A stretch of DNA of 52,329 bases from Escherichia phage Mangalitsa: sequence record NC_048799.1; one strand, written 5' to 3'. This document shows, piece by piece, positions 12,735 through 16,307 of the stretch. Both the position numbers and the translations under genes were made by a program. Under the pieces are notes generated by a model. The model was given only the letters and a program-made list of their open reading frames with translations. It did no database searches and was not told the origin of the DNA. The stretch's first letter is position 1. Each line of letters starts with the position of its first letter.

Positions 12735-12764
12735 GTCGTTTGTTAAATCAGAGCAGTTCTGAAA

Positions 12765-12857: not shown

Positions 12858-13196
12858 ATGGCTAAGATTGTAACCGTAACTCAGTATGAAGCTAACGATG
12901 GTTCCCTGTTCCTGAGCGAAGCAGAATGTAACGCACACGATTTTAAACTGGAAAACGGTGCTAAAATCGACGCAGCTGTTGAAGCGTTCGCCAACACCAT
13001 GAAACTGGTTGACCGTTCTCGCTCCATGCAGAGCAACACTGTTGCATCCTTCCTGGCATTCTACCTGCCGTGGGTTGAAGCTGGTTGCCCGGAAGTTGAA
13101 CGTGTTGCGTTCGACACTCCGAAAGAAGTCAAAGTTGCCGAAGCAGAAGTAGTTGAAGCTGTTGAAGCTGCTGTGGAAGAAGCTCCGGTATTCTAA
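12858..13196 (+). CDS. small acidic protein with acidic tail ending in PVF; candidate DNA mimic or replisome-docking protein
   Basis: About 20 Asp/Glu against 9 Lys/Arg; tail VAEAEVVEAVEAAVEEAPVF; codon usage typical of highly expressed enterobacterial genes (CTG, CCG, CGT, GAA). Confidence 0.55.
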   Translation: MAKIVTVTQYEANDGSLFLSEAECNAHDFKLENGAKIDAAVEAFANTMKLVDRSRSMQSNTVASFLAFYLPWVEAGCPEVERVAFDTPKEVKVAEAEVVEAVEAAVEEAPVF

Positions 13197-14041
13197 GTTG
13201 CCAAGGGCAAACTTGAGAAGCTAAGCTAATTCGATCTGGCACGCACTGGAAGATTTCCGGTGCTGCCTTGAACCCATTCCGGCGTGAGTGGGCTTCAATG
13301 AGCATTCTTGTGATTAGAGTTGGGAGGTAGGCCGATGCCCAATCTCGTGGCCCAGACAAGAGTGTTCATTGAAGTTATTTCAATATGGATGTACAGTAGG
13401 ATGAGAAGCTTCTCCGATAAGAGGAGTGAAAGTAGCTGGAAGGACATGCCCACAGAACTGACCGAGACCATTACAGTAGTAGCGATTCACTACCGCGAAA
13501 CAGTATTGAAATTGGCAACGGTTCATGCGGAAGGGCATCAGTGAAATCTACGTTCAGTGCGCGTGGTGAAATGAAGGAGTAGTGTCCTGAGAATTAGCCC
13601 TGTCTGGTTAAATGCCAGAGTCCATATTAAAGTAACTGGAAACTATTCCTGTCAGGTACTCCTATAATGTCTGAAACGGAGTCAGGTCGCACCTGGTAGC
13701 CGAGGCTATTTACCTACAGATGGATACCTGACAGAAGTAGTTTTCTGAGTCTTACGACGGGCCTAAACTGCCTGGAGTTATTGCGACTGTTTTATTCATT
13801 TAAAATAAATGCAAATGATTCTGAAATGCGAGTTGCGGCTTAATTAAATTTGAGTCCTCTCCGTGGTCTTCCAATCCCATGTAACCAAATTTGGCGCATT
13901 GTGGCTTCGAGATGTGATTAATAAATCGGAGCAATAATTAATTTGTATTCTGCGATGCAGGGCAGGCTTAAGTCCCTCAGTGCGCGTAGGGATGTGATAG
14001 AGTACAAACTTAATTATTAACCTAACCTATAGAGAAACATT

Positions 14042-14296
14042 ATGGAAAGCATTGCCGTATTAATTGTTGGTGTTCTGTTGTTTGCTGCATACATGATTCC
14101 AACTCTCATTGCATTTAGTCGTGGTCATGCTTCCAAGTGGGGCATTTTCATTACAAATCTGTTACTAGGTTTAACAGGAATCTTTTGGGTTGCTGCATTA
14201 ATCTGGTCGCTGTCCAATAAAGGTCAGCAACAATCTCTTGTTGTAAATGTTGGCAGTAATAATGTCAGCAATGTATCACAAAAGGATTCGCTTTAA
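14042..14296 (+). CDS. superinfection-immunity-like small membrane protein
   Basis: Two predicted TM helices; MIPTLIAFSRGHASKWGIFITNLLLGLTGIFWVAALIWSL fits the A..R.H....I..N.LLG.T.I.W..A.IW pattern I recall for this family. Confidence 0.5.
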   Translation: MESIAVLIVGVLLFAAYMIPTLIAFSRGHASKWGIFITNLLLGLTGIFWVAALIWSLSNKGQQQSLVVNVGSNNVSNVSQKDSL

Positions 14297-14543
14297 GTGA
14301 ATTGCCCTGAGCATGGAAATAAACTGCTCTAACCGATGGTATCTACAAAGGTAGATTAAATCAGGTTGCCTGTTGGTACTTGGGTTCAACACCTGCTTGC
14401 ACTCGCAAAGTAGTGCCTTGTACCTGAGATGAAGTGAGTCGGGACCATCAATCCCACGTTATGTCAAAACACAGTAGGCGACTCACAGATTCTACAAGCC
14501 TCGCAGTTTGGGAAAACCTGCGTTACCAAAACCCACCTCATTC

Positions 14544-14639
14544 GGACGAGTAGCTCAGAAGGTCTGCTCCAGAGCTTAGTCAGGTAGAGCAATCTGTTCG
14601 ACAGATGTGTCGTTGGTTCGAATCCAACCTTGTCCACCA
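14544..14639 (+). tRNA. tRNA-like gene with an expanded D region; candidate anticodon UCG (Arg) if the anticodon loop is GTTCGAC
   Basis: 7-bp acceptor stem GGACGAG/CTTGTCC, canonical T-arm GTTGG-TTCGAAT-CCAAC, discriminator A and encoded CCA; D-arm-like GCTT-AGTCAGGTA-GAGC preceded by about 20 extra nt; 93 nt before CCA. Confidence 0.4.
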
Positions 14640-14669
14640 GCTTTAATAACCCGCAACACTGGAGTCCTT

Positions 14670-14810
14670 ATGGATTTTGATGCACTTGATAACTTAGACT
14701 TCGGTGCTGCCGAAGAAGCAATTGAAGAACTGAAGAAGAAACAGGACGAAGAAGCAATCGTTCCTGGTGCTGGCGACAACGACTGCTCAAGTGGTGCGTG
14801 CGCCATCTAA
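14670..14810 (+). CDS. hypothetical small acidic peptide (46 aa) with Cys-containing C-terminus
   Basis: GGAG RBS; MDFDALDNLDFGAAEE...GAGDNDCSSGACAI. Confidence 0.35.
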   Translation: MDFDALDNLDFGAAEEAIEELKKKQDEEAIVPGAGDNDCSSGACAI

Positions 14811-14818
14811 GGTGAATC

Positions 14819-15055
14819 ATGCAACAGCTTAAGTCAATCTTTCTTGGCGTCTTGACTGCATTGGGTATTCTCCTTGCAGTGTTCCTCAAAGGCAAAAGCT
14901 CAGGCAAAGCCGAGGAGCGCCAGGAAGCCAAAGAGAAGCAATTCGATTCCATTAAAGAATCTATCGAGATTAAAACGCATGTTCAGAAAGAAGTGTCTAG
15001 CAGTTCTGATAGCAATGTCGATAGTGAGTTGCTCTCAAAGTGGGTTCGTAAGTGA
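14819..15055 (+). CDS. small membrane-anchored protein, possible i-spanin-like
   Basis: N-terminal TM IFLGVLTALGILLAVFL followed by a charged helical region; AAGGTG RBS. Confidence 0.4.
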   Translation: MQQLKSIFLGVLTALGILLAVFLKGKSSGKAEERQEAKEKQFDSIKESIEIKTHVQKEVSSSSDSNVDSELLSKWVRK

Positions 15056-15188
15056 TTACTGCATGATTGCACAACCAATATATTTGGATGTTGCAGAAGT
15101 GAAAGTTTTGTCACGCGAAACCAAAACACAGATTTTAGTCCACAATGAAACGTGGGCACAAAAGTGTTCGAAACTTACCCGACAGTGA
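14979..15188 (+). CDS. possible o-spanin-like lipoprotein overlapping the preceding gene in the +1 frame
   Basis: MFRKKCLAVLIAMSIVSC: positive n-region, hydrophobic core and lipobox-like IVSC; starts inside 14819..15055 and extends past it; rare codons weaken the call. Confidence 0.3.
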   Translation: MFRKKCLAVLIAMSIVSCSQSGFVSDYCMIAQPIYLDVAEVKVLSRETKTQILVHNETWAQKCSKLTRQ

Positions 15189-16085
15189 GTGAACAAGACG
15201 GACGTCTATAACTTCCCACATAAAGTCGAGGGAGTGCGCGACTTTAAATAACGAGACTCTAGCCACTTGTGGTATGGCAGGTGTAATTCCTGCAAGTTGC
15301 TCTGGGCATAACAATTGAAATTGCTGCCTCGCATTGAACGCGAAAAAGTTCAGGTAGTCACTTCCTAGAACAGTGGCCGGGAACAGACCTAGACAAAAGT
15401 GCTTGAGAACGTTAGCTCTGTCTTGCCAGCATTAATGGCACGTTGGCCGCGTAAAGGCCACAGCGTCTGACCAACGTATCGGTCAACCAAATTCAACGGA
15501 TTCGTAGAGTTAATGAAACCTGCACGATGGGATAGGGATGAAGCATCCGAGGCCGACTGTGTAATTGTGAACGCGGAGTTCACCGAATCCACCAAATCAA
15601 TGGGCTAGTGCAAATGTCAGTCACTAGAAGATGTGTTGCAAAACGTCTTCCATGATGTGCAAAGTGTCAGTCACGTGCCCACCACTTTCCTAACAGTTAT
15701 GCCTCTGTTCAAAAGGCTCATGCGAGCGTCTGGCATACCGTAGCGATACGGCTTAGTTGCGCTGATTGTGTTGTGTCGAAAGAAAGTTCAGGCTTTCGTT
15801 TGAGTTCCTCCTCATCTCGAAGTTAGCTGGATTCAAAATCCAGACTATGTTCCTATTCACATGAAATATGCAAGTCGAGGGTTCTTAATATCTGACATAG
15901 GTATTAAGCGGGTTTATACTTTTCCCCGATGGTCCCCATAAACAAGGTTGATTCACTTGGGCGGTTCGAATCAAATTTAATAAGTGTCTTGGCCGCAGTG
16001 GAAACATCATTTAAGCCAATTTATTGTAATGTTCGTAATAGTCCACGTCAGGGCACTTACTTAAATTTTATCTAGAGAGAGAAAC

Positions 16086-16307
16086 ATGAAAACTGCTGAA
16101 ATTGCCGAAGAGATTTATATGGCCTTAATTGCCAACCAAATTACAAGTGAAGTCCTGCACATGGATATTGAAGAAGTTCGCAAGGCCTTTGGTGGTTTTG
16201 CAATCTTGTCAATCGAAGCTGCGGAAGCACTGACAAACACGTACAACCATCGTGAATACGAGAAGCGGTCTGTACTAAATGCGTCGCTTCAAGCGTCATT
16301 AAAATAA
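16086..16307 (+). CDS. hypothetical protein
   Basis: ORF with GAGAGAGA RBS. Confidence 0.45.
   Translation: MKTAEIAEEIYMALIANQITSEVLHMDIEEVRKAFGGFAILSIEAAEALTNTYNHREYEKRSVLNASLQASLK

Follow-up and report, generated by a model that had tools for sequence, protein, structure and literature searches.

A candidate tmRNA-derived RNA with a message half and no detectable tRNA-like half in Escherichia phage Mangalitsa and other phages

Introduction

Bacterial transfer-messenger RNA (tmRNA, SsrA) is regarded as an indivisible molecule in which the tRNA half brings alanine and the message half supplies the tag. The genome of Escherichia phage Mangalitsa (NC_048799.1, one strand of 52,329 nucleotides, hereafter the window) comprises a region without credible open reading frames (ORFs) at positions 13197–14041, which a preliminary description made from the sequence alone proposed as a large structured non-coding RNA (ncRNA) of no family recognisable by eye. 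The proposal is borne out by plus-strand-specific stability, three long closing helices and covariation. The preliminary description missed a conserved core at 13734–14017 containing an SsrA-like tag frame at 13811–13843; together, core and frame tie the RNA to a known family, tmRNA. In the best reading of the sequence, the core is the essential part of the RNA, homologous to but diverged from the mRNA-like half of tmRNA, and the whole is, on balance probably, a phage tmRNA-derived tagging-template RNA that preserves the mRNA-like half in the absence of a detectable tRNA-like half.

Compared with bacterial tmRNA (RF00023, clan CL00001), the phage RNA shares (i) an A/U-rich resume context followed by GCA, (ii) a tag frame of 10 codons that lacks a start codon and follows the pattern AN[DE]...[hydrophobic]-A/V-A, and (iii) a stop codon located in helix 5 and H-type pseudoknots in the PK2 and PK3 positions, with a pseudoknot in the PK1 position in most phage families. 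In contrast to bacterial tmRNA, it displays neither the acceptor stem with the G3-U70 pair, nor the terminal CCA, nor the P2 helix joining the two halves; it is undetected by ARAGORN, stays below every Rfam tmRNA gathering score and is not accompanied by smpB, whereas long hairpin-closed cassettes replace PK4. The two-piece permuted tmRNAs of Alphaproteobacteria, some Betaproteobacteria and Cyanobacteria (RF01849, RF01850, RF01851 and RF04321) provide the best Rfam alignments of the phage RNA, the module order of which varies by lineage in a manner reminiscent of gene permutation. Unlike in the permuted molecules, no acceptor piece comprising a T arm, a 3' acceptor strand and CCA was found on either side of the phage RNA, and the shuffling of the phage modules resembles cassette exchange at CTTCAAT...ATTGAAG flanks.

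Complete, ARAGORN-detectable phage tmRNAs have been reported in 402 of 18,146 phage genomes (PMC9004378), and a 2014 survey found viral ssrA only in eight mycobacteriophages and Bacillus phage G, together with an RNA comprising only the tRNA-like domain in mycobacteriophage DS6A (PMC4131195). The known phage tmRNAs, from the mycobacteriophage Bxz1 group, Bacillus phage G and Melnitz-type marine myophages, are complete, whereas the present family preserves the message half only; DS6A, which keeps only the tRNA-like half, represents the opposite case. The present family appears in neither survey, although the genome of phiEcoM-GJ1 (GJ1) has been public since 2008, before the 2014 survey. A literature search on phage tmRNA-like, ssrA-like and late-leader RNAs retrieved only canonical phage tmRNAs, and the tag sequences were not found in the literature searched, an absence that is no proof of the family being undescribed. 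GOLLD and ROOL RNAs, also phage-encoded, resemble the present RNA in comprising several hundred nucleotides and many hairpin-closed domains and in often lying beside or containing tRNA genes, but match it neither in sequence nor in structure even at E≤10. A tmRNA-like tag frame is, to our knowledge, absent from both.

The conserved core and its tag frame

The core, 13734–14017 on the plus strand, is 94–98% identical across the genus, compared with 84–93% for the adjacent protein gene, and the segment 13783–13924 remains 82–87% identical in Erwinia and Pantoea phages. The core opens with a leader (13735–13810) that occupies the position of PK1 and comprises AGTAGTTTTC, the motif GCGACT and the A/U-rich resume context AAAATAAAT; the leader motifs GTTTTC, GCGAyT and ATAAAT are common to all other phage families. 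The leader is followed by the tag frame (13811–13843), GCA AAT GAT TCT GAA ATG CGA GTT GCG GCT TAA, which has no start codon and encodes ANDSEMRVAA, a peptide resembling the E. coli SsrA tag ANDENYALAA. The frame was first seen through a weak permuted-tmRNA match in a permissive Rfam scan, the alignment running through AUAAAUGCAAAUGAU...GCGGCUUAA, and ARAGORN at a relaxed threshold selects 13811–13843 as well.

Variation within the frame follows the codons. Among 99 unique cores, the frame occurs in 34 nucleotide versions that encode 18 peptides, all of them 10 codons long, beginning with AN[D/E] and ending with [A/V]A. The entropy of the third codon position is 1.08 bits, against 0.64 bits at position 1 and 0.57 bits at position 2, and synonymous changes account for 26% of codon differences in the tag frame, against 3% and 9% in the other two frames. 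The frame is present in all Chaseviridae genera, within which ANDSEMRVAA is written in five ways that differ only by synonymous changes. As judged by this comparison of sequences, selection demonstrably acts on the tag peptide. Furthermore, an in-frame stop codon lies 24 nt (eight codons) upstream of the frame, with no ATG, GTG or TTG in between, in 76 of the 99 unique copies, which excludes ordinary initiation for most members; in phage 4HA13 the stop codon is located nine codons upstream.

Helix 5 and the pseudoknots

Immediately overlapping the end of the tag frame, a stop-codon hairpin (13838–13855, GCTTAA-TTAAAT-TTGAGT) is paired in the predicted fold and represents the counterpart of tmRNA helix 5. 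Its stem shows compatible changes within Chaseviridae (CTTAA/TTGAG, CTTAA/TTAAG and CCTAA/TTAGG), and in the other phage families the outer stem is 84% paired, with changes on both sides in four of four pairs.

The two pseudoknots that follow were evaluated in an alignment of 54 sequences mutually less than 93% identical (alignment A1), most of which were collected with a search pattern that includes TGTGATTAATAA. PK2 (13862–13894) comprises stem 1, CGTGG/CCATG, and stem 2, formed by loop nucleotides CCAA with TTGG; the stems are 99.3% and 99.1% paired, with changes on both sides (CG:32 UA:22; GC:34 AU:20; AU:41 GC:12), and the segment aligns with the PK2 end of the Rfam alpha_tmRNA model. PK3 (13895–13932) comprises stem A, CGCATT/GATGTG, 100% paired with one variable pair (CG 30, GC 12, UA 12), and stem B, GCTTCGA/TCGGAGC, at which position eight different, fully complementary helices occur. 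RNAalifold recovers the first stem of PK2 and a PK3 stem from the alignment, and when the pseudoknots are written in, 89.3% of cells are paired, compared with 80.9% in shuffles (0 of 500 reaching the observed value) and 37–47% when the partners are slid. The covariation called for by the preliminary description is thus present at three levels: two pseudoknots in 54 sequences, a closing helix (module A, below) in four genera, and an accessory domain (module B, below) with 16 compensatory pairs in five sequences.

The connector of PK3, GATTAATAA (13917–13925), is invariant in 54 of 54 sequences but was part of the collection pattern for most of them, and the same caveat applies to TGTGATTAATAA, likewise invariant in 54 of 54. 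Within the connector lies ATTAAT, a hexamer complementary to itself, through which two loops could dimerise or a conserved partner could be bound.

The core ends with a 3' tail (13933–14017) that carries the hairpin CCCT-CAGTGCGCGT-AGGG (13974–13991), paired in the fold, and the second copy of a 28-nt repeat. The tail is 92–96% identical in the genus and ends sharply at about 14017; no homologue of it was found outside the genus.

Occurrence among phages and prophages

The 3' half of the core matches unrelated phages in blastn searches, including VLCpiS13b (84% over 69 nt, E 9e-12), and Ackermannviridae match the core at 71–72% over about 130 nt. The family was defined by the ATAAAT-GCA resume context, the 10-codon tag, PK2, PK3 with TGTGATTAATAA, and a hairpin-closed GAGCATT...AGTGYTC module, all of which are present in the window. 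A pattern search of IMG/VR returned at least 120 loci, and the prophage version of the pattern finds homologous cores in 521 of 50,697 phage records from several families (about 1%) and in 154 of 5,426 complete E. coli genomes (about 3%). The E. coli prophage copies occupy a 1,020-bp unannotated gap between the gene for the lambdoid antitermination protein (Q) and a lambda-family holin gene. No record annotates an RNA at a homologous core; the family explains many long "gene-free" gaps in phage annotations, and an entire class of relatives escapes tmRNA finders that depend on a tRNA-like domain.

The predicted tags comprise (i) ANDDVVLMAA in DS8-type siphoviruses and in Taipeivirus (Klebsiella phage Magnus, Ackermannviridae), (ii) ANDSEVLMAA in Ackermannviridae (PC3), (iii) ANEEVYLAVA in a Klebsiella siphovirus, (iv) ANDDVILMAA in an N4-like phage (PGN829.1), (v) ANDNVFLAVA in a Felix O1-like phage (Sf16), (vi) ANDDLMMVAA in a P1-like phage (SJ46), and (vii) ANDNAFRVAA in phage 7-11. 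In P1-like phages and Ackermannviridae, the homologous RNA region extends over 1–2 kb and displays many hairpin-closed modules with T-arm motifs (SJ46, locus L143, 1490–2560; loci L005/L006, about 2 kb). In SJ46, genuine genes for tRNA-Asn and tRNA-Thr lie within the region, which recalls the layout of GOLLD RNAs. The family includes Ackermannviridae such as CBA120, lambdoid prophages and P1-like, Felix O1-like and N4-like phages, well-studied groups in which the proposals set out below are directly testable in standard E. coli systems.

Relation to tmRNA and the search for a tRNA-like domain

A scan of 13100–16150 against Rfam at E≤10 returned only sub-threshold matches to tmRNA-type and tRNA models, with no GOLLD, ROOL, group I intron or other intron, or riboswitch among them, and within 13197–14041 the tmRNA and tRNA matches are confined to the tag region. 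Matches to tmRNA_permuted, alpha_tmRNA and beta_tmRNA that stay below threshold recur at one and the same site, in the window as well as in 12 independent loci. Each of the loci with the tags listed above gives such a match to one or another of these models. The highest scores are 30.7 bits (E 0.0098) and 27.2 bits (E 3.7e-5), and the alignments span the resume context, the tag and PK2.

A tRNA-like domain was sought by eye in six candidates: (i) the hairpin at 13273–13292, (ii) module A, (iii) a T-loop-like hairpin at 13603–13619, (iv) the T-arm modules AAGAGCATT...AGTGCTCTTTCC of other families, (v) a 3' domain TGTGGTG...CACCACA, and (vi) the tRNA-like gene at 14544–14639. None displays a G3-U70 pair and a free CCA at tRNA geometry, and all were rejected. 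Nor does any of the three upstream modules of the Mangalitsa region (A to C) show the succession of T arm, acceptor strand and CCA expected of the acceptor piece of a permuted tmRNA. With its threshold lowered to 80% or 60%, ARAGORN recovers the tag, and only at such settings does it call a 'permuted tmRNA'; the many false calls, among them spurious 'permuted' ones for E. coli ssrA itself, meant that this output was not taken as evidence for a tRNA-like domain. A default ARAGORN call in locus L056 was discarded as an artefact built on a genuine downstream tRNA-Met.

Two compact copies delimit the RNA. In Sf16, a promoter-like TTGACA-17-TAAGAT ends 51 nt, or in a second count about 44 nt, before the resume codon and the next tRNA gene begins 67 nt after PK3, so that the whole RNA would comprise at most about 227 nt, consisting of leader, tag, helix 5, PK2, PK3 and one long hairpin. 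Its terminal helix, about 17 bp, is too long for an acceptor stem. L056 displays a sigma-70-like promoter at the same position (about 50 nt before the resume codon), a 3' tRNA-Met and a terminator. Sf16 and L056 appear from these signals to be independent transcription units, which supports the view of the family as tagging-template RNAs.

Several results weigh against that view. At gathering score, no Rfam model matches anywhere in the window, the tmRNA models included, in line with the preliminary description, which assigned no known family: RF04321 scores 20.5 bits in the window and 30.7 bits in locus L009 against a gathering score of 47, and RF01849 scores 27.2 against 50. At default settings ARAGORN, which also searches for permuted tmRNA, calls no tmRNA of either kind in the window and about 140 related loci, while detecting the E. 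coli ssrA control. The nhmmer comparison with E. coli ssrA is weak (6.1 bits, the best of 501, E 0.18) and aligns codon for codon on the tag only, and pairwise local alignment with E. coli ssrA scores 33, within the range of shuffled sequences (mean 24.8, maximum 43). Some AAGAGCATT...AGTGCTCTTTCC modules of other families carry a canonical T arm (GGCGGTTCGACTCCGC), but it is internal, the third acceptor pair is A-U or G-C and not G-U, and by eye there is no free CCA; the Sf16 copy is too small to accommodate both halves of a tRNA-like domain. No SmpB homologue is found in the window by tblastn. The PK1 stems of other phage families, GTTT(T)C/GAAAC and CTTTG/CAAAG, are only 69–80% paired on the 54-sequence alignment and the GAAAC segment is missing from Chaseviridae; a PK1 in the window is for this reason poorly supported and at most putative, although the pseudoknot is recognisable in most other families, and an alternative pairing in the same position, GTAGTTT/AAACTGC, was seen by eye only. 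Finally, we know of no mechanism that decodes an mRNA-like domain without a linked tRNA-like domain.

Proposed function and alternative explanations

The tag frame is read as decoded because its peptide is under selection, and this argument is decisive. The locus would accordingly encode a large modular ncRNA on the plus strand, with 13197–14041 as the main part of its gene, probably produced as part of a transcript from a promoter at 12762 and then cut out. Of the cassettes upstream of the core, A is conserved in the family, whereas B and C are optional. Ribosomes would use the RNA as a template for an SsrA-type degradation tag ending in a hydrophobic residue followed by Ala-Ala, decoded through a trans-translation-like resume event at GCA, and the tag would direct proteolysis as a ClpXP-type degron on truncated proteins. 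As an outcome, ribosome rescue and the disposal of truncated proteins would be kept running during infection. A ribosome might be loaded with the help of a phage tRNA-like RNA acting in trans or of host tmRNA-SmpB; alternatively, the RNA might enter stalled ribosomes directly or be initiated internally to give a free degron peptide, or a tRNA-like domain might not be needed.

A broader and more tentative proposal, to which we give clearly less credence, is that these loci represent a widespread class of phage RNAs that possess the message half only and are decoded without a covalently linked tRNA-like domain. Such RNAs could act (i) with help in trans from host tmRNA-SmpB or a phage tRNA-like RNA, (ii) by threading into the vacant mRNA channel of stalled ribosomes, with ordinary Ala-tRNA reading GCA, or (iii) through internal initiation that is driven by a pseudoknot and yields the degron as a free peptide. 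Retention of the message half alone, in a family whose peptide is under selection, is hard to square with tmRNA as an indivisible molecule; either a partner or a way of loading has so far gone unrecognised, or the tag sequence serves some second purpose. If decoding without a linked tRNA-like domain does occur, it would constitute a new viral takeover of ribosome rescue or proteolytic tagging.

The main rival explanation, which we regard as rather unlikely, is a structured RNA that acts untranslated, for instance as a decoy or sponge that captures factors with affinity for the mRNA-like and pseudoknot portion of tmRNA, such as ribosomal protein S1, RNase R or the ribosome, or as a scaffold or processing platform for neighbouring tRNA and tRNA-like genes, the tag sequence being kept for binding. 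The failure to find a tRNA-like domain fits such a molecule, as does the position of the RNA, always beside or around tRNA genes in Sf16, SJ46, L007 and L056; GATTAATAA, invariant and in part palindromic, points to a binding or kissing site, and the optional cassettes are like those of other large ornate phage RNAs. An untranslated function does not predict, however, the third-position variation, the fixed length of 10 codons, the retained stop codon and the Ala-Ala or Val-Ala end across 34 nucleotide versions.

It is considerably less probable that the frame is translated alone from a pseudoknot-driven internal start at GCA, giving a free 10-residue SsrA-like peptide that would compete for ClpXP, ClpAP or SspB and so shield phage or tagged proteins. 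Selection on the peptide, the missing start codon and tRNA-like domain, and a structured element directly before the alanine codon in most families are all compatible with this explanation, which is nevertheless wholly inferential: no such initiation is known for native bacterial or phage RNAs, and PK1 is weak or absent in Chaseviridae.

Derivation of the region from a decaying, functionless fragment of host ssrA, acquired by recombination into a variable non-coding spacer, is very improbable and already largely refuted by conservation and covariation. Fragments of ssrA do occur in prophages that integrate at ssrA (PMC9004378), and the region is an insertion hotspot that includes HNH endonuclease genes (phages Pel53 and 4HA13). 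Against this origin, Chaseviridae are virulent and the piece corresponds to the middle of tmRNA, not to its 3' attachment-site end; the tags differ from the enterobacterial ANDENYALAA, and blastn gave no match to chromosomal ssrA in 5,426 E. coli genomes; the core exceeds the neighbouring genes in conservation, covaries and occurs in unrelated phage families.

Least credible, and like the ssrA relic poorly supported, are small proteins (those annotated in some relatives, or a 44-residue minus-strand ORF at 13800–13934) and a mere regulatory leader of the downstream immunity gene, for although some records annotate short hypothetical proteins here and core conservation stops just before the ribosome-binding site of that gene, the minus-strand ORF is broken in other genera, the annotated ORFs vary by record, the indels are not multiples of three, and elsewhere the core precedes tRNAs, holin genes or tail genes in place of the immunity gene.

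The region itself has no credible ORF. Only short mechanical ORFs are present, the longest comprising 74–76 residues (13320–13544 on the plus strand and 13129–13359 on the minus strand), and none is conserved; protein-coding homologues, named at the outset as a possible refutation, did not emerge, the ORFs annotated in relatives not being conserved between records. As protein-coding candidates, the plus-strand ORF 13320–13544 was rejected for the non-triplet indels and compensatory pairs of the underlying region, and the minus-strand ORF 13800–13934 for its stops and frameshifts in other genera.

Modular cassettes upstream of the core

The plus strand of the region folds with a predicted free energy of -270.6 kcal/mol (z -5.38), a stability matched by none of 20 shuffles, compared with -223.2 kcal/mol (z -2.49) for the minus strand. 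An inverted-repeat search identifies three long closing helices: I1, 13293–13311/13356–13374; I2, 13640–13658/13725–13743; and I3, 13373–13389/13621–13637.

At the left edge, just past the stop codon of the upstream gene, a plus-strand stem-loop GGCACGCACTGGAA-GATT-TCCGGTGCTGCC (13238–13267) is paired in both the minimum free energy (MFE) and centroid folds; its counterpart in phage SA91KD is annotated as a rho-independent terminator, whereas the simple terminator scan used here does not call it, and it may represent a processing or termination hairpin. The 5' hairpin that follows (13273–13292, CCCATTC/GAGTGGG, also paired in the fold) leads into a junction motif, GGGCTTCAAT. Its stem is unchanged in Faunus, 4HA13, phiA050 and Fifi44, the loop of Fifi44 bearing an insertion.

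Module A (13293–13374, plus strand) is closed by inverted repeat I1, an 18–19 bp helix CTTCAATGAGCATTCTTG/CAAGAGTGTTCATTGAAG, and displays a conserved knot-like tip, GATTAG..GGGAGGTAGGCCGATGCCC..GGCCCAGA. The closing helix covaries among Carltongylesvirus, Sabourvirus, Faunusvirus and Loessnervirus (GAGCATTCTTG/CAAGAGTGTTC; GAGTGTCTTAT/ATAGGGCACTC; GAGTGCATTG/CAGTGCATTC; GAGTTGCATATTG/CAATGTGCAAC). The module lies upstream of the tag in Carltongylesvirus but downstream in Sabourvirus, Faunusvirus and Loessnervirus, the phages with the downstream arrangement being 4HA13, Faunus, Fifi44 and SSEM1. Module A shares with the T-arm modules of other families the GAGCATT/AGTGYTC helix and the GATTAG motif, the knot-like tip replacing the T arm, and the two are presumably homologous.

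Module B (13373–13637, plus strand) is a 265-nt accessory domain closed by TTTCAATATGGA/TCCATATTAAAG (I3), with a T-loop-like hairpin, TCTGG-TTAAATG-CCAGA (13603–13619), at its 3' end. It is known from five sequences including the window, the other carriers being only TH53, phiA050 and two IMG/VR relatives; on these five, RNAalifold predicts 64 pairs, 16 of them with compensatory changes, and the indels measure 1, 2 and 5 nt.

Module C (13640–13743, plus strand) is built on the feature stressed most by the preliminary description, a 10-bp long-range helix of CTGTCAGGTA (13649–13658) and TACCTGACAG (13725–13734). The helix is real, located exactly as described, and extends to arms of 19 nt each that are 89% complementary (I2); by our own estimate, about 0.08 perfect 10-mer inverted repeats no more than 100 nt apart are expected per 845 nt. 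It closes a dispensable accessory cassette of about 66 nt, however, and not the functional core, although its 3' arm overlaps the start of the core at AGTAGTTTTC. Module C is carried only by the window, the Yersinia phages PYps3T, PYps4T and PYps16T (99% identical) and Faunus, in which the interior is 75% identical and the closing helix different; it is not present in TH53, GJ1, SA91KD, DE15 or PO103-1. The small hairpins described as nested within the helix do form in the MFE fold but are not kept in Faunus, the sole diverged homologue.

Two repeats had also been pointed out. GTCAGGT does occur twice, which is trivial, and CAGTGCGCGT is present in two copies that start at 13555 and 13978, slightly displaced from the 13553 and 13977 first given. 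CAGTGCGCGT heads a 28-nt direct repeat, TCAGTGCGCGTGGTGAAATGAAGGAGTA/TCAGTGCGCGTAGGGATGTGATAGAGTA (13554–13581 and 13977–14004, 79% identical), the first copy of which belongs to the optional cassette B and the second to the conserved tail; more distant homologues of cassette B do not keep theirs. The repeat may represent a shared binding or cleavage site.

Among the relatives, TH53 alone matches most of the region, whereas the others match in two blocks with a variable middle. GJ1 and PYps3T display an unrelated hairpin of 65–75 nt in place of 13300–13620/13733; SA91KD and DE15 keep 13293–13390 followed by a different insert of 170 nt; TH53 is devoid of 13635–13733, the segment that contains the 10-bp helix; PO103-1 shows a nearly direct junction from 13375 to 13777; and Pel53 and 4HA13 carry an HNH endonuclease gene at the junction. 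Each insert is bounded by the identical inverted motif CTTCAAT...ATTGAAG. The presence of varied inserts between identical flanks identifies the left two-thirds of the region as a chain of exchangeable hairpin-closed cassettes. True circular permutation in Carltongylesvirus was considered and rejected in favour of cassette exchange, because different inserts sit between the same flanks in five phages (GJ1, PYps3T, SA91KD, PO103-1 and Pel53).

HNH homing endonuclease genes lie at or beside the tmRNA-like RNA in Pel53 (L139, 736–1176), 4HA13 (L015, 1720–2151) and Sf16 (L141, 1813–2160). Their insertion in three different phages suggests that homing is directed at the RNA gene or its junctions and that recombination is concentrated there. 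The Pel53 record (PP952070.1, 'Staphylococcus phage Pel53', host Staphylococcus hyicus) comprises a Chaseviridae genome about 92% identical to that of Mangalitsa; such a host is implausible for this phage group and may reflect a mis-assignment.

Genomic context

Mangalitsa is a phiEcoM-GJ1-like myovirus (Chaseviridae, Carltongylesvirus), the published genome of which has a coding density of 89.66% and no reported tRNAs (PMC6753284). The genes around 13197–14041 run from left to right, with a gene for an acidic protein of 112 residues and no Pfam match on the 5' side (12858–13196) and a superinfection-immunity gene on the 3' side (14042–14296; Imm_superinfect, PF14373, E 1.4e-17). A scan of the whole window for the GJ1-type phage-polymerase promoter CATTAGTTGGATGTGAA, allowing up to five mismatches, places matches at 129, 2618, 2874, 3746, 6848, 10589, 10777, 12430, 12762 and 16785, the one at 12762 being the closest upstream of the RNA region. 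None lies between 12782 and 16785, so that the RNA and the lysis-gene block seem to depend on the 12762 promoter or on read-through. A simple scan of 13197–14041 detects no sigma-70 promoter or intrinsic terminator on the plus strand; the sole promoter-like match in the region is on the minus strand (13219–13190, 9/12), fewer than expected from shuffles.

The tRNA-like gene that the preliminary description noticed in the neighbourhood is located at 14544–14639. It comprises the acceptor strands GGACGAG/CTTGTCC, an encoded CCA, the T arm GTTGGTTCGAATCCAAC, the anticodon region TCG and an insertion of about 20 nt in the D region, which varies among GJ1, SA91KD and the window. The gene scores 27.9 bits against the Rfam tRNA model (gathering score 29) and is not called by ARAGORN, which labels the counterparts in GJ1 and SA91KD Leu and Ser; the GJ1 record labels its counterpart tRNA-Arg and adds that it 'may contain an intron'.

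The 14297–14543 spacer, which separates the immunity gene from the tRNA-like gene, is ORF-poor as well. It contains short blocks conserved in Faunus, phiA050, Y2 and 4HA13, namely 14299–14329, the hairpin CTGAGCATGG...CTGCTC and 14473–14534, which in these four phages sit within the long RNA region. From this placement of the blocks, the immunity gene may be an insertion into an ancestral RNA cluster.

A second ORF-free stretch, 15189–16085 (897 bp), matches no Rfam model at E≤10 and does not resemble the tmRNA-like family. It is conserved within Chaseviridae only (66 records, mostly without annotation), displays the same block-wise pattern of presence and absence as 13197–14041, and may constitute a second structured RNA region.

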